In this document: piece by piece, positions 38,094 through 49,987 of the stretch
Layout: every line of letters begins with the position of its first letter
How positions within the stretch are numbered: the stretch's first letter is position 1
NCBI GenBank assembly: GCA_001604035.1
Contig: LVAK01000027.1
Span: 26 to 64,025, forward strand
Length of the DNA: 64,000 bases
Source: Clostridiales bacterium Firm_05
Lineage (GTDB): Bacteria; Bacillota; Clostridia; Oscillospirales; Ruminococcaceae
Direction of reading: 5' to 3'
Program-made: the position numbers and the translations under genes
Notes under the pieces: model-generated
Seen by the model: the letters and a program-made list of their open reading frames with translations, nothing else
What the model was told of the DNA's origin: nothing
Databases searched by the model: none

Positions 38094-38259
38094 GCAATAC
38101 CTAATTATTATACCAAATAATTAAATATAAATCAATAGCACTATAAATATTTTTTTTTATTAACTATAAGAGTGCAGCGAATGATGATTGCAAAAAAAGA
38201 AAAAATATGTTAAAATCAGAATATGCTTTGCTTTATATTACGATCAGGATGTGAAATTT

Positions 38260-38928
38260 ATGAAGAAAATATTACTCGTTGAAGATGATAAAAGTATTAT
38301 AGCCAATCTCTCGGAATTTCTTAAAAAGGAAGGCTTTTCGGTCGTCAATGCTGAAGGACAGGCCAGAGCGCTGGAGATAATCAGTGAAGAGCAGTTCGAT
38401 CTGGTCTTGCTGGACGTATCACTTGCTGACGGAAACGGTTTTGCTGTATGCTCGGCAATAAAATCTGAATCCAGCACCCCTGTGATATTCCTGACAGCCT
38501 CAGGCGACGAATACAGCACGGTTACCGGCTTTGAGCTGGGAGCGGATGACTATATAGCTAAGCCGTTCCGTCCGAGGGAGCTCATACTGCGTATAAAGAA
38601 CATCCTCCGTCTTACAGGAGGTACAGGCTCCGTGACTAAGCTTGGGGATGTGACGATAGATACCGAAAAGGGGATAGCCTCACGCAATGGCAATGACCTT
38701 TATCTGTCTGCACTTGAATACAGGCTGCTGCTGGTATTTCTTAATAACAGGGGAACAGTCCTGTCGAGGAATCAGCTTCTTGAAGCGATCTGGGATATTG
38801 CCGGTGAGTTCGTGAATGACAATACCCTCACTGTATATATAAAGAGGCTAAGAGATAAGATCGAGAAAGATCCTCAGGATCCGCAGATCATAAAAACGAT
38901 CCGTGGACTTGGATACAGGGTGGACTGA
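38260..38928 (+). CDS. OmpR family response regulator
   Basis: ILLVEDD, LLDVSL.DG, GADDYIAKPF, KTIRGLGY. Confidence 0.95.
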   Translation: MKKILLVEDDKSIIANLSEFLKKEGFSVVNAEGQARALEIISEEQFDLVLLDVSLADGNGFAVCSAIKSESSTPVIFLTASGDEYSTVTGFELGADDYIAKPFRPRELILRIKNILRLTGGTGSVTKLGDVTIDTEKGIASRNGNDLYLSALEYRLLLVFLNNRGTVLSRNQLLEAIWDIAGEFVNDNTLTVYIKRLRDKIEKDPQDPQIIKTIRGLGYRVD

Positions 38929-39932
38929 TGATAAAGATATTGAAAAATGCAGAGCTTTCGCTCTCGTTGAAACTTATGCTGCTGATAACAGTTCTCGGCT
39001 CGGTATACGGCTTCAGCCGGGACAGTCTTACCGGGGCGGTATTTCTTTCATCAGGTCTTATGATGTCCGTTATACATCTTATCTGCAATGCCTACAGACT
39101 GTCAAGGCTCAAAGCAATGTCCATAGATGTAGGCAGGATCCTTCATGGTGATGAGGATGTTAACTTCAATGCTTACACAGAGGGTGAGACTGCCATACTT
39201 GAATGTGAGCTCAGCAAGATGACGATAATGCTCCGGGAACAGCAGCAGAACCTGAAAAATGACAAGGTATACCTTGCGGATTCACTTGCAGATATATCAC
39301 ATCAGCTCAGAACACCGCTCACATCGCTTAATCTCATCAATTCACTGCTCTCCCGTCCGGACTGTACTGAGGAGAAGCGCAGGGAGCTTATGATCGAGAT
39401 GAGGGGGCTGCTGGGACGGATAGACTGGCTGATAACAGCCCTTCTCAATATGTCCAAGCTTGATGCAGGAACAGTAAAATTCCGGCAGGAGACTATATCT
39501 ATGAAGGATTTTCTCAGCAAAGCCACAATGCCGATACAGATACCTATGGAGCTGCGTGAACAGAAGCTGATAATAGAAGCTGATGGGGAGTTTTCAGGAG
39601 ATATACACTGGACGTGTGAGGCAGTGGGCAACATTATAAAGAACTGCATGGAGCATACTCCTGACGGCGGCAGGATAACTGTCATAGGAAATGATAATCC
39701 GCTGTATACAGAGATCGTTATAACTGATACAGGCTGCGGCATCTCAAAGGAGGATCTGCCCCACATATTTGAGAGGTTCTATAAGGGAAAGGATTCCGGC
39801 GACAGCAGCTACGGCATAGGCCTTGCGCTGGCAAGGAAGATAGTTACCAGCCAGAACGGTACGCTTAAGGCATTTGATCCTCCTGGAGGAGGAGCCGGAT
39901 TTGAGATGCGCTTTTATAAGGGAACGATATAG
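38928..39932 (+). CDS. Sensor histidine kinase (short, intramembrane-sensing type)
   Basis: Two closely spaced TMs; DISHQLRTPL, NIIKNCMEH, DTGCGI, GIGLA. Confidence 0.93.
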   Translation: MIKILKNAELSLSLKLMLLITVLGSVYGFSRDSLTGAVFLSSGLMMSVIHLICNAYRLSRLKAMSIDVGRILHGDEDVNFNAYTEGETAILECELSKMTIMLREQQQNLKNDKVYLADSLADISHQLRTPLTSLNLINSLLSRPDCTEEKRRELMIEMRGLLGRIDWLITALLNMSKLDAGTVKFRQETISMKDFLSKATMPIQIPMELREQKLIIEADGEFSGDIHWTCEAVGNIIKNCMEHTPDGGRITVIGNDNPLYTEIVITDTGCGISKEDLPHIFERFYKGKDSGDSSYGIGLALARKIVTSQNGTLKAFDPPGGGAGFEMRFYKGTI

Positions 39933-40060
39933 TGACAGAATTGTTATTTTTAAGTCACGGTAAAGTCACATAGGTCTGATATAATAACATCATCGAAAGG
40001 AAATACACCAGAATTTTTATGGCTGACATGGCCTGAAAAATACTATCAAGGAGAAATGTT

Positions 40061-40744
40061 ATGGAAATACTTAAAGTTGAAGACCTGTGCAAGGTTTATG
40101 GAAAAGATGAGAATGAGGTACACGCACTGGATCATGTATCCTTCTCAGTTGAAAAAGGCGAGTTCGTAGCGATCATTGGTCCTTCCGGTTCGGGAAAGTC
40201 AACTCTCCTCCACGCTCTCGGCGGAGTTGACAAGCCTACATCCGGAAAGGTATGGATGAATGGCAGTGATGTATACGCCCAGAACGATGAGCAGCTTGCT
40301 ATATTCCGCCGCAGACAGGTGGGACTGATATACCAGTTCTACAACCTGATACCGGTGCTGAATGTTACAGAGAATATAACACTGCCGGTACTTATGGACG
40401 GAAGAGAGGTGAACAAGCAGCGACTTGAAGAGCTCCTCAATCTTCTCAAGCTTAAGGGCAGGGAAGATCACCTTCCGAACCAGCTTTCCGGCGGACAGCA
40501 GCAGAGAGTTTCCATAGGCAGAGCGCTTATGAACGCTCCGGCAGTAATGCTGGCCGATGAGCCTACAGGAAATCTTGACAGCAAGAACAGCCAGGAGATA
40601 ATCGAGCTGCTCAAGCTCTCCAACGAGAAATACGATCAGACTCTTATCATAATAACACATGACGAGAACATCGCTCTTCAGGCAGACCGTATAATCGCTA
40701 TCGAGGACGGCCGCATTACTCGTGACGAGGTGATAAGAAAATGA
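40061..40744 (+). CDS. ABC transporter ATP-binding protein (LolD/MacB type)
   Basis: [26 protein letters not shown]. Confidence 0.95.
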
Positions 40745-43500
40745 ACGTATTCCACAAAGTCACGATCGAAACAGTTAAGAAAAACAAGGTCAGGACACTT
40801 GTTACTATAATAGGTATAATGCTTTCAACAGCGCTGATCTTTTCAGTTGCCACCACCCTTTACAGCTTTATCTGCTTTGGAAAGGACATGGCTATATACA
40901 ATTCCGGAGACTGGCATGGTGTGGCCGCCCCTCTCACTCAGGACAGAGTGGATGAGCTCAGGGACGATTCCAAGATAGACGAGGTATTCTGCCTCGGCGC
41001 CGTAGGCTATGCTGATACGGGAGTAAAGCTGCATACGGAGATGAAATCATATAAATATATGGTCATAGCAGCAGATGAAAAGTGCTTTGAAAATCTTCCG
41101 TATCATCTTAAAAGCGGAAGATATCCTGAAAATGACAGTGAGATCATCATATCTGATATTTATTTTGAAAATAATATCGATGATGCCTTCAGAGCAGCAG
41201 GAAAAGGTGAGATAGGTATAGGAAGCACTATAGACATGGATATGACCATTGATATTTCCGGCGGCATCGGTGATATACTGACGGAAGAGCCTGACGAAGA
41301 GATGCTTATGGAAAAAGCCTCCGAAATAACAGGCACTCATAAGACATACACTATCGTAGGAATTTACGAACAGCCTTATATAAGTGAGATTATGGAAGGC
41401 GATTGGAATAATATAAATTGCCTTACAATTGGCGACAGCAGTTCCGGAAGCGGCATCTATACAGCTTTCTTCAAGATGAAAAAGGCTGGAAACGTCGGCG
41501 ATTATCTCAATCAGAATTTCAATTTCAATGAGGATAGAAATGCGGGCATAAGCACTGCTACAAATGATGAGCTCCTTGCGTACAGTCTCAGCGGCGGCAA
41601 AGCAGATGCTGGGTTCCTCATGTCAGTATTCCTGATAGGCTCTATTGTGTTTGGTATCATAATATTCGGTTCTGTAGCACTTATATACAATGCATTTGCG
41701 ATATCAGTCAGTGAGAGGACAAAGCAGTTCGGACTCCTTTCGTCAATAGGTGCAACGAAGAAGCAGATAAACAAGATGATAGAGTTTGAAGCGCTCCTGC
41801 TCAGTCTTATTGGAATACCTCTTGGAATATTGCTGGGTTACTGCGGTATCGGAATAACCTTCAAAGCACTCAGCACCAGATTTGATACAATTACAAAAAT
41901 GATATCCGATTCTAATCCTGTACCGTTCAAGCTTCATGTTTCATGGATAGTTATACTTATTTCCATATTGGTCGCAGAGTTTACAGTAAGACTTTCAGCA
42001 TGGATACCCTCTGTAAGAGCACAGCGTATATCAGCAGTAGAGGCTATCCGTCAGAGCGGTGATATAAAGGCAAAGAATAAAAAGATCCGCACACCTAAGA
42101 TAATATACAAGCTCTTCGGACTTCCTGGCGTTCTTGCACAGAAGTATTTCAAGCGCAGTAAGAAGCGTTACCGTGCAACGGTATGGAGCCTCTTTATGAG
42201 CATAACCCTGTTTATTTCAGCATATGCGTTTACCACTGGCCTTGTCAGATCCGTTGAGGAGGAAATGGGCACAGAGCATTATGACATACAGTATCTGACT
42301 TCATTTAATGACGATGAAAGTGCAGATAAGCTTTTTGCAAAGCTGAAAGATGCGGATGAAGTATATGAAGCCGCATGTTCCGAGTATATTGAAATGAGAG
42401 CCAACGCTGATGAAGATGTAATCAACAGTGAAGCAAATGATGTTTTTCATTATACCAGCGTTACAGAATCAACTGACAAAACCGTGGAAACAGTAGTATT
42501 CTTTGTTGATGATGATACCTATCGTGATTTCCTTAAGGAAAACGGATATGATACGGATAAATACATGGATCCGGAGCATCCGATGGCATTAACATATGAC
42601 ATCCATGAAGAATATGATATTGTAGATAGCAAAACGTTCAAATATCATATTTTCGACAGCGATGATGAAAAGAAAGTTAAGATCGAATATGATTACGATC
42701 CCAAGGGATATGTTCGTGACAGCATAGCTGATGGCAAAATAAGATTCGTTAAGGCAGCCTATAATGTCAGCGATGATCCGGATGAGATATATCTTACGAA
42801 GGAGGAGACATGGGTTGAGCATGATATAGCGGTCGGAGCAAGACTGTCTAAACGTCCATTTTTTGCAGTAGGCGATTACTATAATGAATGTACGTTCATA
42901 TTTCCTAAGAGCCTTCGTGACAGTGTCATCCCGAAGCACAGTAATTATTACTTATACTCATATACTTTCCTTTCCAACGATCATAAAGAAAGCTATAATG
43001 CTATAAAAGAAATCATTAACGCAGAAGGCGGAGACGATGAGTTTATCTATGATTATGCGGCAGAGGTCGAATATATCAGAAATATGGTAGTAATAATAAA
43101 AGTATTCGCATATGGTTTCATAGTGATAATATCCCTTATTGCGGCAGCAAATGTATTCAATACCATATCCACCAACATTGCCCTCAGAAGAAGAGAATTT
43201 GCAATGCTCCGTTCAATAGGAATGGGTACAAAGGGACTGAACAGGATGATGAACTTTGAGTGCCTGCTCTACGGCGGAAAATCACTCCTTTTTGGATTAC
43301 CGATATCATTCCTGATAGCCTACTTTATAAACAAAGGATTCAATTCTGCTAATTCTGATATAACCTTTGAGCTTCCTTGGAAGGCAGCGATAATATCTGC
43401 AACAAGCGTATTTATCGTTGTGTTCTCCACAATGATCTATTCAATGAGAAAGATCAAGAAGGATAACCCGATCGATGCTCTTAAGAATGAGAATCTGTAA
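40741..43500 (+). CDS. FtsX-like ABC transporter permease
   Basis: ERTKQFGLLSSIGATKKQI and RRREFAMLRSIGM FtsX motifs; large extracellular loops. Confidence 0.9.
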   Translation: MNVFHKVTIETVKKNKVRTLVTIIGIMLSTALIFSVATTLYSFICFGKDMAIYNSGDWHGVAAPLTQDRVDELRDDSKIDEVFCLGAVGYADTGVKLHTEMKSYKYMVIAADEKCFENLPYHLKSGRYPENDSEIIISDIYFENNIDDAFRAAGKGEIGIGSTIDMDMTIDISGGIGDILTEEPDEEMLMEKASEITGTHKTYTIVGIYEQPYISEIMEGDWNNINCLTIGDSSSGSGIYTAFFKMKKAGNVGDYLNQNFNFNEDRNAGISTATNDELLAYSLSGGKADAGFLMSVFLIGSIVFGIIIFGSVALIYNAFAISVSERTKQFGLLSSIGATKKQINKMIEFEALLLSLIGIPLGILLGYCGIGITFKALSTRFDTITKMISDSNPVPFKLHVSWIVILISILVAEFTVRLSAWIPSVRAQRISAVEAIRQSGDIKAKNKKIRTPKIIYKLFGLPGVLAQKYFKRSKKRYRATVWSLFMSITLFISAYAFTTGLVRSVEEEMGTEHYDIQYLTSFNDDESADKLFAKLKDADEVYEAACSEYIEMRANADEDVINSEANDVFHYTSVTESTDKTVETVVFFVDDDTYRDFLKENGYDTDKYMDPEHPMALTYDIHEEYDIVDSKTFKYHIFDSDDEKKVKIEYDYDPKGYVRDSIADGKIRFVKAAYNVSDDPDEIYLTKEETWVEHDIAVGARLSKRPFFAVGDYYNECTFIFPKSLRDSVIPKHSNYYLYSYTFLSNDHKESYNAIKEIINAEGGDDEFIYDYAAEVEYIRNMVVIIKVFAYGFIVIISLIAAANVFNTISTNIALRRREFAMLRSIGMGTKGLNRMMNFECLLYGGKSLLFGLPISFLIAYFINKGFNSANSDITFELPWKAAIISATSVFIVVFSTMIYSMRKIKKDNPIDALKNENL

Positions 43501-43786: not shown

Positions 43787-45418
43787 ATGTACAATTATAT
43801 TGAACAACATCCGGAAGATCGAGAGATGGGTTGGAGTAACGAAGTAAACGGCGTGTGTCACGATAAAGATAACTGGTTTTTCACACAGGATGGAAATTTG
43901 TGGAAATTCCCAGTGACACATAATATAAACTCTAAATGTGAAAAGCCTGATGCCTCAAAAGGAATATTAAAAGTTTCTGTTGGTCATCATCTTGGAGATA
44001 TAGACTACTATAAGGGATATGTTTTTGTTCCCGATTCTGATAATTTAAGTATCCGTGTATATAGCGCAAGTGATCTTACACTTGTTTCTGAACATTTCAT
44101 TAAACGCGGAGATGGTAATAATTTCGCTTCAATCGGATGGCTTGCGATCAATCCAAACAGTGGTCTGCTATATACATCTGATAAACATACAGGCAGTGAT
44201 TACTCAGAAGAAACAAGCTATATAAATATTTACAAAATAGGCGATGTTACAAAAAATAATACAATAACATTTCATTCTTCTCTTGCGTTATGTGATAGAA
44301 ATGGTAACCCGCTTCCGCGCGAACATATGCAGGGGGGCTGTTTTGATGATAATAATTATCTGCATATTGTAAATGGATTTGTAACAAAAGTTAGCGAAAG
44401 CTGGGCAAACAGCAAGGGTGGGATTTCTGTGTTTTGTGTAAATCCATATCCAATCGAACGCAGCAATGAAAAGGCGAATAGAATTGATTTTTCAAATCAG
44501 GAAAAAGGATTCCATTTTCAGTTTAATGGAAAAGGGGATGAGCCTGAGGGAATAACATATTGGGATCTTGACAGTGATAAAAGAGCACCTGGAAAGAATG
44601 GTAAACCAATGGGGGGGCAACTTCATGCAATAATGATCAATAATGTGGAACCAGGGACTATAGTCAATTGGGTTGCCGATAAAGTTGGATTAGGCTCTTA
44701 CGTGAATGCGCCTGATATTGATGATTTCTTTTTTAAGCATTATCGACGTGAATGGAAAGATCCAAATGGAAAAATAACTTTAAGTTCTGTTGCTGTTAAT
44801 GAACCGATTAAAATAAAGATTACTGGTGATCTGGCATCTATATACTATAATTTTTATTTGAAATATAACCGAAAGTTTGAAATGGCATTTCAATGGCAGA
44901 GAGGCCAGTATCAGGGAGATCCAAGCGGAGAATGGGAGAATATCTGGGGAGCAACCAGTAATACCTACACTCCAACTCCTGATGATCATGGTTATCATAT
45001 CCGGTTAAAAGTGGTTGCTGAGACGGGGTATAAACCTCTTTATTCAAGTGCGTGTTATGTTAATGCTCCGCATATAACAGGCAGTGCCGAGATACCGTCA
45101 GAGGTACGCTGCGGTCAGGAGATAACAGTAAAGCTTACGGGTGATCTTGGAAAAGTTCCTACGGACAGAATATCTTTTGTCTGGGAGCGCAAGGGAGACG
45201 ACGATGATTACTGGCACAGATATATTGCTACAGGCAATAAATATACGCCAACACAAGAGGATGTTGGCAAGAAGATACGTGTTTATGTTGATCCATATGA
45301 CTATACAACATTTCTTGATTCAAATGAAGCCAGTGTACTGCCTGCGCTTAAAAGAAGAAATCCAAGACTAGGAGGTTCTACAAGACCGGTCAGAAAAACA
45401 TCCAGATCAAAAGTATGA
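43787..45418 (+). CDS. Hypothetical protein: unknown N-terminal domain plus two Ig-like repeats
   Basis: Repeats FQWQR...GATSNTYTPTPDDHGYHIRLKV and FVWER...TGNKYTPTQEDVGKKIRVYV; AT-rich; RBS AAGGAG. Confidence 0.8.
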   Translation: MYNYIEQHPEDREMGWSNEVNGVCHDKDNWFFTQDGNLWKFPVTHNINSKCEKPDASKGILKVSVGHHLGDIDYYKGYVFVPDSDNLSIRVYSASDLTLVSEHFIKRGDGNNFASIGWLAINPNSGLLYTSDKHTGSDYSEETSYINIYKIGDVTKNNTITFHSSLALCDRNGNPLPREHMQGGCFDDNNYLHIVNGFVTKVSESWANSKGGISVFCVNPYPIERSNEKANRIDFSNQEKGFHFQFNGKGDEPEGITYWDLDSDKRAPGKNGKPMGGQLHAIMINNVEPGTIVNWVADKVGLGSYVNAPDIDDFFFKHYRREWKDPNGKITLSSVAVNEPIKIKITGDLASIYYNFYLKYNRKFEMAFQWQRGQYQGDPSGEWENIWGATSNTYTPTPDDHGYHIRLKVVAETGYKPLYSSACYVNAPHITGSAEIPSEVRCGQEITVKLTGDLGKVPTDRISFVWERKGDDDDYWHRYIATGNKYTPTQEDVGKKIRVYVDPYDYTTFLDSNEASVLPALKRRNPRLGGSTRPVRKTSRSKV

Positions 45419-45558
45419 AAGGCTTGCTCATAGCAATGGAGATAACAGAATTTGACGCAGAGGATATTATCCTTGCAAGCTGCGGAGGAATGATCGGACA
45501 TTCCGGTTCTGCTGGTTCAATTGAGAATCAGGGTGATTTTGGCGAACTATTCAGCTGA
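45415..45558 (+). CDS. Unlisted 47-aa peptide, copy 1
   Basis: MKGLLIAMEITEFDAEDIILASCGGMIGHSGSAGSIENQGDFGELFS; ATGA overlap with upstream stop; homologous to copy 2. Confidence 0.65.
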   Translation: MKGLLIAMEITEFDAEDIILASCGGMIGHSGSAGSIENQGDFGELFS

Positions 45559-45570
45559 TCGTTAAATGAG

Positions 45571-45600
45571 AACGGCAGGCAGCTAATGCTGTCTGCCGTT
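45571..45600 (+). terminator. Terminator of cassette 1
   Basis: AACGGCAGGCAGC/GCTGTCTGCCGTT plus T-tract; nearly identical to 48953-48986. Confidence 0.75.
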
Positions 45601-45656
45601 TTGCCGTTATATTATAAGAAAAATGCTCACCTTGCGTAAAGGTGAGCATTTTTGTA

Positions 45657-45938
45657 TTACTCCTGTGGAAATTTCAGTCCCCACTGCCGGCGGCATTTGT
45701 CCAGTATCCTCATTACTGCAGCAGTTCCGGAGCGGGGGACAAACGGGCTGTCGGTCAGGCCATTGTTGAGACATAGGCAGAATTCCTCGATTTCATATTC
45801 ATAACCGTTGATCTTGTCCTTGCATGAGAAGCTTTCAACGGGGCGGCGGTTTTCGTCATAGAGGGTTATATCATCTGCGTAGAAGAAGCCGTCTCCGAAG
45901 ACGATCATGCCCTTTGTGCCGGAGATGACGGCGTTGTT
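45657..45938 (-). pseudogene. 3' remnant (93 codons) of a Gfo/Idh/MocA oxidoreductase, diverged duplicate of 49004-49285
   Basis: 69/83 aa identical to the C-terminus of the 49004-49987 product; homology ends abruptly after NNAVISG. Confidence 0.85.
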
Positions 45939-45950
45939 GAGAAAAAGGAT

Positions 45951-48780
45951 TTTATCAAGCAGCCGCAGTCAGGTACGCTTTACTTCAAAGTCCTGCCGTA
46001 TACGGATCACATAGTAGATTTTACGATGTGGATTTTGAATATGATCTCGGAATAAACGACATTGTGGAAGTAAAACACAATGGCGAATTATACAAAACAC
46101 TTAATTCCGAAAGCGGAACAAAACATTCCTTTGAGGTCAACGATCCGGGAGATTACTGCATCATAATCAAAGATGCGTTTCAAGACAAGATGAGATATAT
46201 GTAGAAGTATACAGCGATCATTTCACCGTTTCAAAGAATAAAAGTATAACTGTTCAGCCGCAGAGCTGCGTAAAGTCTCCTTCAAAAAATGAGCCGGCGA
46301 CCGTGACATGGAAAAATGATTTCTTCCCCAAAAAGGTGCTTATCCAGCGTTTTGAAGGCGGAGAATTCGCAGATTTTTATACAAGTGAAGGCAGTTCGAT
46401 AATGTTTTTCACTTTTAATAGTCACACACTGAATTCTTTTTCGTATGATTTCAATGAAGAAGGCACATACCGTATCCGTGAATAGTACGGCGACGGCGAG
46501 GACGAATACGTTGACAGCGATTTTTTCCATATAGAGAAATACAAGTTCAAGCTTCAGCCTTATTTCAAGTATACTGGGAACTCAGATAAATGGTCTATCA
46601 AGTATCAGGATTTTGAGAAATTAGTATGGCGAATGAACGCAGACGAATCTGCAAAGTTTGTGCTGTTCAGACGTCCTTCCGGTTCTGACGACAGTGTGCT
46701 TTGGGATAGCTTCAATATTACCCCGGAGTGTAAAAAGTATGTTGATTCAAGCGGCGCATACGGTTCGGTCGTCAAAGACTGGTATATGCTTTACAGCACG
46801 AATAAAAACGAGGATTTTGATTACTTCATTCGTGCGTGGATGACGGACGATCCTGACAGCTACGCCGATTCCAACGTGTTCACAGTTCATATGCAGGCTC
46901 CACGTTATTATTATAGTTGGTCGGGACTGGCATTCAGCTTCGATTCCGTAACATATTCCGGTAATTTCATAGATCCCGACGAGGAGATCACCATTCCAGT
47001 TCACCTCGAAACTAATCTGGTGGACGTTAATGGCTCTTTTGATCTCAATTGGGACGCAGATAAGGTAGAGCTTTTAAGGATAGAATACAACGACGAGGTA
47101 TTCCATGTTGAAGATCCTGATCCGATAGACGGCCTCAGCGGTTCGTACCGAGTGTACTTCGGCGATGATGATGCTAATACGAATAATAAGGACAGCGGTC
47201 TTGCATTCACGCTCTATTTCAGACCGTCGTACTATTCTGAGTACGCCGATTATGCTGAAGACGAAAAGCCTTCTTATGACGAACTCATTGATGAAGAAGT
47301 TGATGCATATGTAAGTATATCAAATTTGGACGTTGTTAATGCAGACGGAGAATCTGTTGATGCTTCTTTCTGGGATACAATGATCAGTTTCTATGCCAAC
47401 GATAAGTTAACTATTTCATTTGAAAATTAATTCGCATATGCAGGTGAGGGTGAACTCAGGATAAACGTCTTAGCTCTGGCAAATCCTGGCTTCAAATATA
47501 TGGAAATGCCGATCTGGCTGCCAGAGATAGATGGCATCTACAAGTTGAAGGACATAGAAGCCAACGATGATTTTGCTCCTTTGCAGTATGAGAAGCTTGA
47601 GATTGATCCGGATGAATATTCAGAGTATAATACGATAATAAAGCTCGGCAATGAGAACGCAGATGAGAATTATACAAACCGAGGCGTGATGTTTACACTT
47701 GTATACGAGATCGCTGATTATAGTGCTGGATTTGAAGGCGACTGGTGGATGTTTGCACAGCATCTGTCTTTATGGCCGGATTCATATCCTATGGTTGTGA
47801 ACGCCGATAACGGGGATGTACCGTTTGCAATTTTTAATTACGGCGAATCACTGGTGGCTATGTATGGATTCAGCGAACAGCCGCAGCCTTATGGAGCAGA
47901 CAGCTTCGTTATCCCTTATAACGGCAAATGCGGTATAACATGGACGCTGCTGTTCACGATCGACACATACAGATGTCAAAACCCGACCGTACCCCAAAAA
48001 CAGGTGCTTTGCCGCCGTCCCGTTGGAGCCTCCGAAGATACGTCGTGGGAAACAGTGGAGATCGAAGGATATTACTGCGATTACGGTAAATACGTATTTG
48101 AAATGGACGGCACAAACGAGTGGCAGAACTATGAGTGCTTCATTCGTGTCTGGGACAATAATAAAAAATATGAAGCAGAAGCAGAATCGAATTGCGTATG
48201 CTGTACACACAATAAGGATTATATTGATTCCGATATATTCGTAGTAGAGATGCAGGGTCCCGATCCCCGCATAATGGTCGATACATACAAAGCAAACGGA
48301 ACATATCCCACACAGGAAGGCAAGGTATTTGCAGGCTGGTATGCAGCTCCCGACTTTACAATGCCGTATACTGAAAGCACAGGATATGCATTTGCAAAAT
48401 TCGTGGATGAGGATGTTAACAAGGTAATGGCACAGTTAGCTTCCGGAACAACTGCTGACAGCGAAAAGACAGATATCAGATTCGTAACAACGATCGATGA
48501 TCTCAACTATAAGAATGTAGGGTTCCTTATCACTTTAGGCGGCAAGACTGCCAACGTTAAAACAACTGATGCATATAAGGAGGTAAACGGCGGCGGAAAC
48601 GCATATGTTCCGACAGCTTTCTCCGAAGAATCAAATTGGTTTGTGACCTATCTGCTCAAAAATGTTCCTAACATTGTTTTCAATAAGGAGTTTAAGGTGC
48701 AGGCATACTGGACAACTCTGGACGGTACTGTTGTAACAGGAAAAGAAAAGGCATTTAAGGTGAACGAACACTTTAATTGA
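45951..48780 (+). pseudogene. 5'-truncated, disrupted large surface protein (Ig-like and cohesin-like modules plus C-terminal domain)
   Basis: ORFs 46303, 46633 and 47500 share one frame, split only by TAG 46483 and TAA 47428; two apparent upstream frameshifts; no start codon or signal peptide. Confidence 0.8.
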
Positions 48781-48794
48781 AAGGAAATAAAACC

Positions 48795-48944
48795 GTGAAA
48801 GATAAAATATATGTTACTCCTGAAATGGAGATCATTGAATTCGATGAAGAGGATATCATCCTCACAAGCGGCGGCGGAATGAAAGGTAATTCCGGGGCAG
48901 CCGGAGATAAAGAAAATCAGGGCTATTTCGATGATCTTTTTTAA
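48795..48944 (+). CDS. Unlisted 49-aa peptide, copy 2
   Basis: GTG start with RBS AAGGA; MKDKIYVTPEMEIIEFDEEDIILTSGGGMKGNSGAAGDKENQGYFDDLF. Confidence 0.75.
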   Translation: MKDKIYVTPEMEIIEFDEEDIILTSGGGMKGNSGAAGDKENQGYFDDLF

Positions 48945-48952
48945 CTTATAAC

Positions 48953-48986
48953 AAAACGGCAGACAGCTTAAGTTGTCTGCCGTTTT
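48953..48986. terminator. Terminator of cassette 2
   Basis: AAAACGGCAGACAGC/GTTGTCTGCCGTTTT. Confidence 0.75.
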
Positions 48987-49003
48987 ACAATTTAATATGC
49001 TTT

Positions 49004-49987
49004 TCATTCTTGCGGAAATTTCAATCCCCATTGTCTGCGGCATTCATCAAGCATCCTCATAACAGATACGGTACCGGAGCGGGGGACGAGTGTGCTGTTG
49101 GTGAGGCCATGGCTGAGACAGCGGCAGAACTCCCCGATCTCGTATTCATAGCCGTTTATCCTGTCCTTACAGGAAAAGCATTCAACAGGGCGGCGGTTTT
49201 CGTCATATAGAGTGATATCGTTGGCGTAGAAGAAGCCGTCCCCGAAAACGATCATACCCTTTGTTCCGGAGATAACAGCGTTATTTCGGAGAGTGAGCTC
49301 AAATCCGGAATCCGCAGCAGCGTAACTGCCGTCAGGATAGCGCATGATGATAGTATTGCTCAGGTCTATACCGTCTTTGATATGTGCATTGCTTATGATC
49401 TCTGACGGTTCGTTGCCGAGAAAGTCTGCGGCGAGAGTAACAGGGTACACAGCCAGATCAAGGAGGGCTCCGCCGCCGCAGTCCGGCCTGAAAAGCCTGT
49501 CATTTCTGTCGTAGGGGACGGTATTGCTGAAATCGGCTTTGATGAAGCGGATATCGCCAATGCGGCCGGACATCGCCCATTCCTTGGCTTTAAGGTATAC
49601 CGGGCGGCATTTCATCCACATAGCCTCCATGAAGAAGAGCCCGTTTTCATCCGCAGTTTTCAGCAGTATCTCAAGCTGTGCAGAGTTAAGAGTGACAGTT
49701 TTTTCGCAGAGGACGTTTTTGCCGTGTTCAAGACACAGCATAGCGTCATTGAAGTGGGACGCCATAGGAGTTGCAATGTAGACTGCTTCTGCATCTGAGT
49801 GTTCAGCAAAGTCCTCGTAGCTGCCGTAAGCTTCACGGGAGCCGGACTCTTCGGCAAAGGCATCGGCTTTTTCTTTACTTCTTGAAGCAACGGCGCATAG
49901 CTCAGCTTCTTCACAGCCGTTCAGTGCTTCTGCGAATTTGTGTGCGATACGGCCTGTACCGACAATGCCCCATTTTATTTTATCCAT
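49004..49987 (-). CDS. Gfo/Idh/MocA family oxidoreductase
   Basis: WGIVGTGRIA, AVYIATP, VLCEK, EAMW, GGGALLDLAVY. Confidence 0.93.
   Translation of the reverse strand: MDKIKWGIVGTGRIAHKFAEALNGCEEAELCAVASRSKEKADAFAEESGSREAYGSYEDFAEHSDAEAVYIATPMASHFNDAMLCLEHGKNVLCEKTVTLNSAQLEILLKTADENGLFFMEAMWMKCRPVYLKAKEWAMSGRIGDIRFIKADFSNTVPYDRNDRLFRPDCGGGALLDLAVYPVTLAADFLGNEPSEIISNAHIKDGIDLSNTIIMRYPDGSYAAADSGFELTLRNNAVISGTKGMIVFGDGFFYANDITLYDENRRPVECFSCKDRINGYEYEIGEFCRCLSHGLTNSTLVPRSGTVSVMRMLDECRRQWGLKFPQE

Follow-up and report, generated by a model that had tools for sequence, protein, structure and literature searches.

In the 64,000-nt stretch of Clostridiales bacterium Firm_05 DNA analyzed here (the window; C42:26-64025, from a fragmented assembly of 265 contigs), two related peptide open reading frames (ORFs) each lie behind a large protein gene. 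By analogy with a system described in Bacilli, the second of these ORFs (copy 2) is probably an orphan precursor of the lppA type, which gives rise to linear polyphosphorylated peptides (LPP); it would be read through a Y-x-x-P leader motif and matured by enzymes encoded on another contig (C218), the first ORF (copy 1) being a dead relic of such a precursor. The evidence for this reading comprises the membership of the peptides in a family, the conservation of their leader, the genomic and phyletic linkage of that family to a set of maturation genes (K-B-S-D-N), the location of this cassette in trans in the host genome, and the structure of a duplicated block in the window.

Copy 2 starts at a GTG codon (48795), with TTG 48777 as a possible alternative, and an AAGGA box lies 9 nt 5' of the GTG. 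The encoded peptide presents the motif Y6-V-T-P9 together with all the positions that are invariant in the family (I13, F16, E19, D20, I22 and S25). The ATG of copy 1, on the other side, overlaps the TGA of the preceding gene, and homology begins only at M8 (45436), the first seven codons (MKGLLIA) being unrelated sequence; neither an in-frame Y-x-x-P nor a Shine-Dalgarno sequence was found in copy 1, which hence lacks this leader feature. From MEI onward the two peptides are identical at 27 of 39 positions (BLASTP, E=4e-17). Both ORFs are followed by hairpins of near-identical sequence, and no shuffled sequence folds as well as these do. An earlier note on this DNA, made by reading the letters alone, had placed both ORFs at these same positions, counted the same shared residues, and pointed out the paired terminators, the Y-x-x-P of copy 2 (Y-V-T-P) and the degraded N-terminus of copy 1, all of which were borne out. 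Pfam and NCBIfam searches with both peptides returned nothing meaningful, and the peptide profile matched no sequence in the PDB. Judging from these sequence features, copy 1 is most likely a relic without function that has lost its start and the motif bound by the recognition element (RRE) for peptides that are made by ribosomes and modified after translation (RiPPs).

A six-frame search of the host genome identified 10 members of this peptide family on 7 contigs. They conform to the consensus M-x-K-Y-x-T-P-E-M-E-I-I-E-F-x-x-E-D-V-I-T-T-S, followed by a variable tail of 7-30 aa, and the six leader positions listed above are invariant among them. The intact host copies have their own start 2-6 codons before K-Y, a ribosome binding site (mostly a clear GGAG-type box) and a hairpin terminator. 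Extension of the upstream protein into the peptide by read-through or a frameshift was rejected, because the peptide's own start and ribosome binding site occupy a conserved position in every copy. Beyond the host, a profile search of 5.8 billion proteins yielded at least 6974 clusters (31-79 aa) matching the family; Pfam domains are absent from all of them, and where a source name is given, in a few cases, it is "hypothetical". Species-representative genomes contain 102 such peptides at 79 loci, carried by Ruminococcus, Oscillospiraceae, Roseburia, Agathobacter, Eubacterium, other Lachnospiraceae and Monoglobus. Several types of tail recur among them and are kept between species (E-L-P-x-Φ-P, with a hydrophobic residue at Φ; P-E-V-D-P; N-E-T-D-I; Gly-rich acidic; and G-D-F-G-x-L-F).

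Literature searches on the leader motif, on PF14907 and on HPr kinase combined with RRE and signal peptidase yielded no published description. The paper that describes LPP covers Bacilli, and a term search of it returned no instance of Clostridi-, Ruminococc-, Lachnospir-, orphan or surface (PMC13381572). The earlier note had proposed a candidate undescribed system; the Clostridial peptide family is unannotated, and its cassette corresponds to that of LPP, which appeared in print in May 2026 (PMC13381572).

Two further sets of family members were also observed. In Lachnospiraceae bacterium G02639 (L075 7980-8568), two precursors with the same type of leader have Cys-rich tails (e.g. GGGCSGDCIKVCTNECQTVCQSNCNEVTP), with two large ABC proteins encoded nearby and an S26-like gene at some distance; these tails may reflect a different modification chemistry acting on the same leader. 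At L109 7331-7471 and L110 6965-7105, a divergent member (MNNFFAEPKIEIILFAAESIVTAS...) has F-x-x-P in place of Y-x-x-P and a GDFGNLF tail of the window type, and the locus also encodes a phosphatase ending in the C-terminal module found in the window.

The host genome encodes exactly one PqqD protein and one PF14907 protein, the genes of which lie 2 kb apart in a single operon on contig C218 (Table 1). The five predicted products of this operon are supported by domain matches to HprK/ScmC, PF05402 (52 bits), sigpep_I_arch (6.6e-8), ABC_membrane plus ABC_tran, and PF14907 (141 bits). The HprK-like kinase has the Walker A sequence GTGKST, and the 144-aa peptidase contains the motifs GVSM (G-x-S-M), H-R-V and G-D-N. 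All 10 host-genome precursors lie off the cassette contig. Adjacency of precursor and cassette was instead found in 23-28 loci of other species; in R. flavefaciens YL228, for instance, the PqqD and NTP_transf_5 (PF14907) genes directly follow the peptide. When the five C218 proteins were used as phmmer queries against the 79 foreign loci, PqqD was detected at 28, NTP_transf_5 at 24, the HprK-like kinase at 20, the S26-like peptidase at 16 and a closely related ABC exporter at about 12. With A denoting the precursor, genes at cassette loci are ordered [large protein]-A-K-B-S-D-N or A-B-N. Co-occurrence across genomes points in the same direction: among 151 genomes of the same GTDB family, PF14907 is present in 6 of the 6 with the peptide and in 14 of the 145 without it (Fisher p=2.6e-6, with related genomes treated as independent here and in the co-occurrence test below).

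The earlier note had seen no RRE, peptidase or cyclase in the stretch, in agreement with domain searches that found none among the window proteins. The genome-wide search for an RRE/PqqD maturase that it had suggested returned the single PqqD of the C218 K-B-S-D-N operon, and the proposal, made there as one of two options, of an orphan RiPP precursor matured in trans is now well supported by the leader family, by the PqqD/RRE linkage at 28 of 79 loci and by this single operon.

Minimal cassettes, in which PqqD and NTP_transf_5 genes follow the precursor with neither kinase nor peptidase nearby, occur at L029, L030, L040, L043, L050, L073, L081 and L088, including several Ruminococcus genomes. 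Such A-B-N cassettes may constitute a distinct sub-system or may be served by genes elsewhere.

Two other maturation routes were considered and set aside. A radical SAM protein (CNLHCAGC, with a Cys-rich C-terminus) is encoded on the minus strand at L009 10277-11368 (C52:13277-14368), 0.7 kb upstream of the C52 precursor and adjoining glutathione peroxidase and MarR genes; as a candidate maturase it was rejected, radical SAM genes not being recurrent near other precursor copies. Export through a double-glycine leader and a peptidase-ABC transporter was dropped because the exporter contains only ABC_membrane and ABC_tran, with no C39 domain; its alignments to TIGR01193 and TIGR03796 begin at model position ~140, beyond the N-terminal peptidase domain, and a GG follows the leader in only some family members.

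In Paenibacillus alginolyticus and other Bacilli, LPP are specified by the cluster lppA-K-B-S-D-N (Popov et al., Nat Commun 2026, PMC13381572). Their precursors are 35-200 aa long and share the conserved sequence YxxPxVLxHQxIxFETxxS ahead of variable C-termini; LppK polyphosphorylates Ser+3, and LppS, which is SipW-like, cleaves after Thr-1 only with the leader presented by LppB (PMC13381572). In the heterologous host LppN showed no activity, and the authors call the biological role of LPP unknown (PMC13381572). We infer each of the following biochemical steps by analogy with this Paenibacillus system. The copy 2 precursor would be transcribed with, or just behind, the upstream secreted-protein gene, transcription ending at its own hairpin terminator. 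The leader (K-I-Y-V-T-P-E-M-E-I-I-E-F-D-E-E-D-I-I-L-T-S) would be bound via Y-x-x-P by the C218 PqqD-type protein, and the HprK-like kinase would phosphorylate the invariant Ser at the end of the conserved region (the junction Ser). The SipW-like serine peptidase would then cut off the leader at or next to I-(T/L)-T-S, the MsbA-like ABC exporter would secrete the product of ~24 residues, and the NTP_transf_5 enzyme would add a further group. Because the only cassette resides on another contig, copy 2 would be an orphan precursor matured in trans.

Several points weigh against this scheme. The leader of copy 2 ends in I-I-L-T-S, where the family usually has V-I-T-T-S. Many tails in the family have no Ser or Thr past the junction, which makes the modification site a guess. 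That one cassette serves all 9-10 dispersed precursors is an extrapolation, and the gene upstream of copy 2 looks decayed, so that the module may here be on its way out. The Clostridial leader (KYxxPEMEIIEFxxEDVITTS) also differs from that of LPP in sequence and spacing: compared by eye, the two have in common the Y-x-x-P, a hydrophobic/Phe block and the terminal Thr and Ser, with three more residues between the Pro and the junction in the Clostridial leader and different residues elsewhere. Finally, a profile built from 21 Clostridial RRE sequences matches the lasso-peptide proteins TbiB1 (2.5e-5) and TfuB1 (3.5e-5), and also PbaB1 (9X90; 0.047), better than it matches Paenibacillus LppB (9X8Z; 0.45). 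As the profile is nearer to lasso B1 proteins than to LppB, the Clostridial genes may form a parallel branch rather than part of the same clade.

Table 1. Features of the window and of related loci. Positions without a locus name refer to the window.
Feature	Position	Strand	Description
Copy 2, putative intact lppA-type precursor	48795..48944	+	49 aa; VKDKIYVTPEMEIIEFDEEDIILTS + GGGMKGNSGAAGDKENQGYFDDLF; full sequence VKDKIYVTPEMEIIEFDEEDIILTSGGGMKGNSGAAGDKENQGYFDDLF
Rho-independent terminator of copy 2	48953..48986	+	15-bp stem, -23.7 kcal/mol, z -9.1, then UUUU
Copy 1, putative 5'-truncated lppA-type relic	45415..45558	+	47 aa; MKGLLIAMEITEFDAEDIILASCGGMIGHSGSAGSIENQGDFGELFS
Rho-independent terminator of copy 1	45569..45602	+	15-bp stem, -27.1 kcal/mol, z -6.6, then U run
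543-aa protein gene upstream of copy 1	43787..45418	+	Two weak Ig-like repeats, basic tail
Fragmented large gene upstream of copy 2	46135..48780	+	One frame; in-frame TAG 46483-46485, TAA 47428-47430
Truncated Gfo/Idh/MocA oxidoreductase pseudogene	45657..45968	-	Last 83-96 codons; right part of duplicated block
Intact Gfo/Idh/MocA oxidoreductase gene	49004..49987	-	PF01408, PF22725; convergent with copy 2
C218 operon	L028 7484-11743		Order K-B-S-D-N: HprK-like kinase, PqqD, S26/SipW-like peptidase, MsbA-like ABC exporter, NTP_transf_5
Lipoproteins or transmembrane-anchored stalk proteins with the tail of the adjacent precursor	L095 8118-8767; L097 8118-8755; L074 7444-8120; L081 2704-3202; L087 3946-4884		Mostly synonymous codon differences

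The similarity between the two window copies reaches beyond the peptides and terminators described in the earlier note. It forms a block of ~520 bp with ~80% nucleotide identity (about 45436-45950 versus 48825-49330), which spans the codons from MEI onward, the terminator and the 3' end of a minus-strand oxidoreductase gene. The oxidoreductase fragment retains 83% amino acid identity to residues 245-327 of the intact gene, with a ratio of nonsynonymous to synonymous differences per site (pN/pS) of 0.11 and a synonymous divergence (dS) of about 1.6. Between the two peptides pN/pS is 0.18 (leader 0.11, tail 0.23) with a pS of 0.83, synonymous sites being saturated or nearly so. Since a gene fragment cannot be under purifying selection, this divergence must have arisen while both oxidoreductase copies were whole, in different lineages. 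The tail of copy 1 (GGM.G.SGSAGS.E.QGDFG.LF) is moreover closer to that of a peptide from another metagenome (P0055) than to that of copy 2, which fits a foreign origin of the copy 1 block. Horizontal transfer and recombination would have brought this block to the resident locus, the 3' end of the oxidoreductase gene serving as one homology arm; the position of copy 1 next to the 543-aa gene is then most likely an accident of recombination, and the odd tandem arrangement in the window would be explained as a recombination scar.

These same data bear on the alternative that both ORFs are chance or decaying frames without a product, their similarity being due to segmental duplication. For copy 1, with neither a native start nor a ribosome binding site nor the recognition motif, this is the reading we prefer, and it agrees with the inclusion of the similarity in a longer block containing a dead gene fragment and with the in-frame stops in the gene before copy 2. 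As an account of both ORFs it is quite improbable: copy 2 belongs to a family of thousands with an invariant leader and a conserved start position, ribosome binding site and terminator, the peptides diverge at the low pN/pS given above with saturated synonymous sites, and orthologous tails are kept across species.

The genes that precede the two peptides show no relationship to each other. For the 543-aa protein, no signal peptide is predicted and all Ig-like Pfam matches fall below the gathering score. The gene before copy 2 has a frameshift near 46135-46204, with an earlier piece (45941-46204) in another frame, and apart from its two in-frame stops (Table 1) it forms a continuous 880-codon frame; it too lacks a predicted signal peptide and reaches only Ig-like matches below the gathering score. 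Its C-terminus consists of a Listeria-Bacteroides repeat and a beta-rich module (IRFVTTID...AYWTTLDGTVVTG). This gene is either a decaying pseudogene or an assembly error; recoding was dismissed because the two in-frame stops differ (TAG and TAA). The earlier note had described each peptide as trailing a large Ig-repeat gene for a surface protein. A large gene does precede each copy, with Ig matches that are sub-threshold, genes that are mutually unrelated and, before copy 2, a fragmented frame; for neither of the two window proteins is a signal peptide predicted.

The association with large genes is recurrent. In the host genome, 8 of the 10 precursors stand 10-45 nt behind a gene that encodes at least 500 aa, a length attained by ~16% of genes (P about 1.6e-5), and a ninth follows a 57-aa remnant of a large gene. 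The upstream host proteins include BspA-type leucine-rich repeat, Listeria-Bacteroides repeat, CotH/Cthe_2159 and dockerin/C-lectin proteins, most of them with Sec signal peptides. In other species, where ORFs were called by simple scripts, 53 of 92 judgeable precursors follow, at a distance of at most 50 nt, an ORF that has the same direction and encodes at least 200 aa (median length at least 700 aa). A large protein gene was called next to the precursor in 21 of the 23 loci with maturation genes, which makes it a recurrent component of these clusters; the order is [large protein]-A-(K)-B-(S)-(D)-N in 19 of them, the exceptions being L071 and L075, where some or all cassette genes are found upstream of large gene and precursor. 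Tabulating the genes upstream of homologues, a check put forward in the earlier note, thus revealed a large secreted-protein gene as a recurrent neighbor in gut and rumen Clostridia.

The C-termini of these upstream proteins, sorted by regular expression, define two classes: class A ends in ...KALYxYxxAAxxY (~270 aa) and class B in ...YxRAYLVYTDxNGxxxTVYG. The class A domain is predicted (pLDDT 88) to form two Ig-like sandwiches with a long helix after each, and it is an internal duplication (L013 14355-15254 and 28 homologues) for which there is no Pfam model; a PDB profile search gave no match and Foldseek returned only generic tandem Ig/FN3 folds with a TM-score of about 0.2. This domain is present in 5 of 6 peptide-bearing genomes versus 4 of 145 peptide-less ones (p=1.2e-6). 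Tail composition follows the class of the partner: Gly-rich tails accompany class B (32% Gly) and Pro-rich, low-Gly tails accompany class A (7% Gly; Mann-Whitney p about 1e-6, uncorrected for shared ancestry).

The pairing of protein and peptide at copy 2 is conserved: over 282 aa, the fragmented gene shows 42% identity to the ORF located before the L041 peptide, and across its last 43 aa it shows 56% identity to the ORFs that come before P0055-type peptides. A hidden Markov model of the class B C-terminus did not detect the upstream protein of the window, nor did BLASTP match it to the class B protein of the host genome, and the label "class B-like" for this gene therefore derives solely from its homology to the L041 partner. 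The same C-terminal module ends diverse Clostridial secreted enzymes, including proteins without a trailing peptide, and the link is hence not obligatory.

Three R. flavefaciens strains encode a lipoprotein that has a long stalk rich in Ser/Thr and PIELPLVPLR as its C-terminal sequence, which is also the tail of the precursor encoded 20 nt downstream; 9 of the 10 codons differ synonymously between the two. A second tail shared by stalk and precursor (DDGLDWSPL.PVN) behaves similarly, and loci with such stalk proteins are listed in Table 1. The preservation of the same tail despite synonymous codon differences argues that selection keeps it on both the stalk and the exported peptide, and suggests that the tails are recognition epitopes acting at the cell surface.

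As its other option, the earlier note had cast the peptide as a partner dedicated to the upstream protein. The adjacency to large genes beyond chance and the tracking of domain class by tail type uphold this in part, and the accidental-looking adjacency of copy 1 detracts from it. In its strict form, in which the peptide acts unmodified as a complementing strand, chaperone or anchoring tag without any RiPP machinery, this explanation has in its favor the 53 of 92 precursors close behind a large co-directional ORF, the 8 of 10 host upstream genes of at least 500 aa, the correlation of tail type with class A or B and the co-occurrence of class A with the peptide. We nevertheless regard it as improbable: the peptide has no signal peptide and its partners are mostly Sec substrates, so that an unprocessed cytoplasmic peptide would miss a secreted protein; its conserved part is an RRE-binding leader of the lasso/LPP type; in the sampled genomes the family never occurs without the NTP_transf_5 cassette; and the upstream genes of the window are neither class A nor detectably class B. 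A rather speculative extension of maturation by the C218 enzymes, which we hold to be unlikely though less so, is that the phosphopeptides are cognate ligands or surface tethers for the protein encoded just upstream, and not free antibiotics. Each secreted protein and its precursor would then, equally tentatively, be a matched two-gene module sharing one maturation and export cassette, and the exported, phosphorylated and decorated tail might conceivably be recognized by the C-terminal domain of its partner (class A or beta-rich class B). What suggests such a role is the order [large protein]-A-K-B-S-D-N, the correlation of tail with domain class, the phyletic coupling of class A and the tails shared with stalk proteins.

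Directly upstream of the 543-aa gene, window positions 38188-43500 encode an OmpR-type response regulator, a histidine kinase, an ABC ATPase and a 919-aa double-FtsX permease, a BceRS/BceAB-like module (peptide sensing or detoxification).

LPP became known as a class only in 2026, from work on Bacilli, and the locus studied here adds a much larger, unannotated branch from gut and rumen Clostridia with thousands of precursor clusters. It provides a name for a very common "hypothetical" small ORF. Since the orphan precursors can be scattered at a distance from the one maturation cassette, most of them would escape genome mining based on clusters. Furthermore, their systematic coupling to genes for large secreted proteins with particular C-terminal domains turns the role of LPP into a testable question, namely whether the mature tail binds, tethers or regulates the upstream protein.

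Among known systems, weak matches of the kinase-like and PqqD proteins pointed to the HPr-rel-A system (TIGR04352/TIGR04353) and to ScmC (TIGR04249), with all scores far below the curated cut-offs. HPr-rel-A and SynChlorMet systems are found mainly outside Firmicutes and have other partner genes.

A closer likeness is to the phosphorylated or glycosylated lasso peptides of Firmicutes, such as paeninodin (PadeK) and pseudomycoidin (PsmK/PsmN) (PMC7533575, PMC13381572), with which the Clostridial system shares an HprK-like kinase, a PF14907-type transferase, a PqqD B1 protein, an ABC exporter and a [Y/W]-x-x-P leader. It differs from them in having an S26-type serine peptidase in place of the B2 cysteine peptidase, and no cyclase was seen, none having been searched for directly. 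That the peptides are lasso precursors with a cyclase encoded elsewhere would accord with the Y-x-x-P, with the Thr penultimate before the variable part, as in Firmicutes lasso leaders (PMC7533575), and with the RRE profile, which matches lasso B1 proteins best. Yet no B2 peptidase gene was found in the genome, the sole PF13471 match (28.5 bits) being a generic Transglut_core protein beside helicase genes, and the 23 related cassettes, searched for the five gene types only, have K, B, S, D and N genes too closely spaced to accommodate a cyclase. Many tails, furthermore, have 7-12 residues and lack the Gly/Ala start and the Asp/Glu at positions 7-9; no acidic residue occurs at these positions in the core of copy 2 (GGGMKGNSG), and the tails of most members begin with Pro, Asp or Asn or do not reach the length required. 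We consider this possibility highly improbable and, judging from gene content, the Clostridial products must be linear.

The strongest resemblance is to LPP. The C218 operon comprises the same five genes in the same order (kinase, discrete PqqD RRE, archaeal/SipW-type signal peptidase I, exporter and NTP transferase), the precursors have an N-terminal Y-x-x-P leader, a conserved Ser at the junction of leader and core and a hypervariable C-terminus, and neither gene set includes a macrolactam cyclase, although in Clostridia a cyclase was not searched for directly. Apart from the leader sequence discussed above, the Clostridial system differs in its hosts, which are Clostridia and not Bacilli, in its cores of 7-30 aa, compared to 45 aa in the characterized LPP, and in the existence of the shorter A-B-N cassette, which lacks kinase and peptidase. 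Its precursors number up to 10 per genome, dispersed away from a single cassette, and stand behind large secreted-protein genes, in contrast with the location of LPP precursors in capsule loci. Based on these comparisons, the Clostridial system appears to be a variant of the LPP kind, whether as a member of the same clade or, as may be the case, as a parallel branch.

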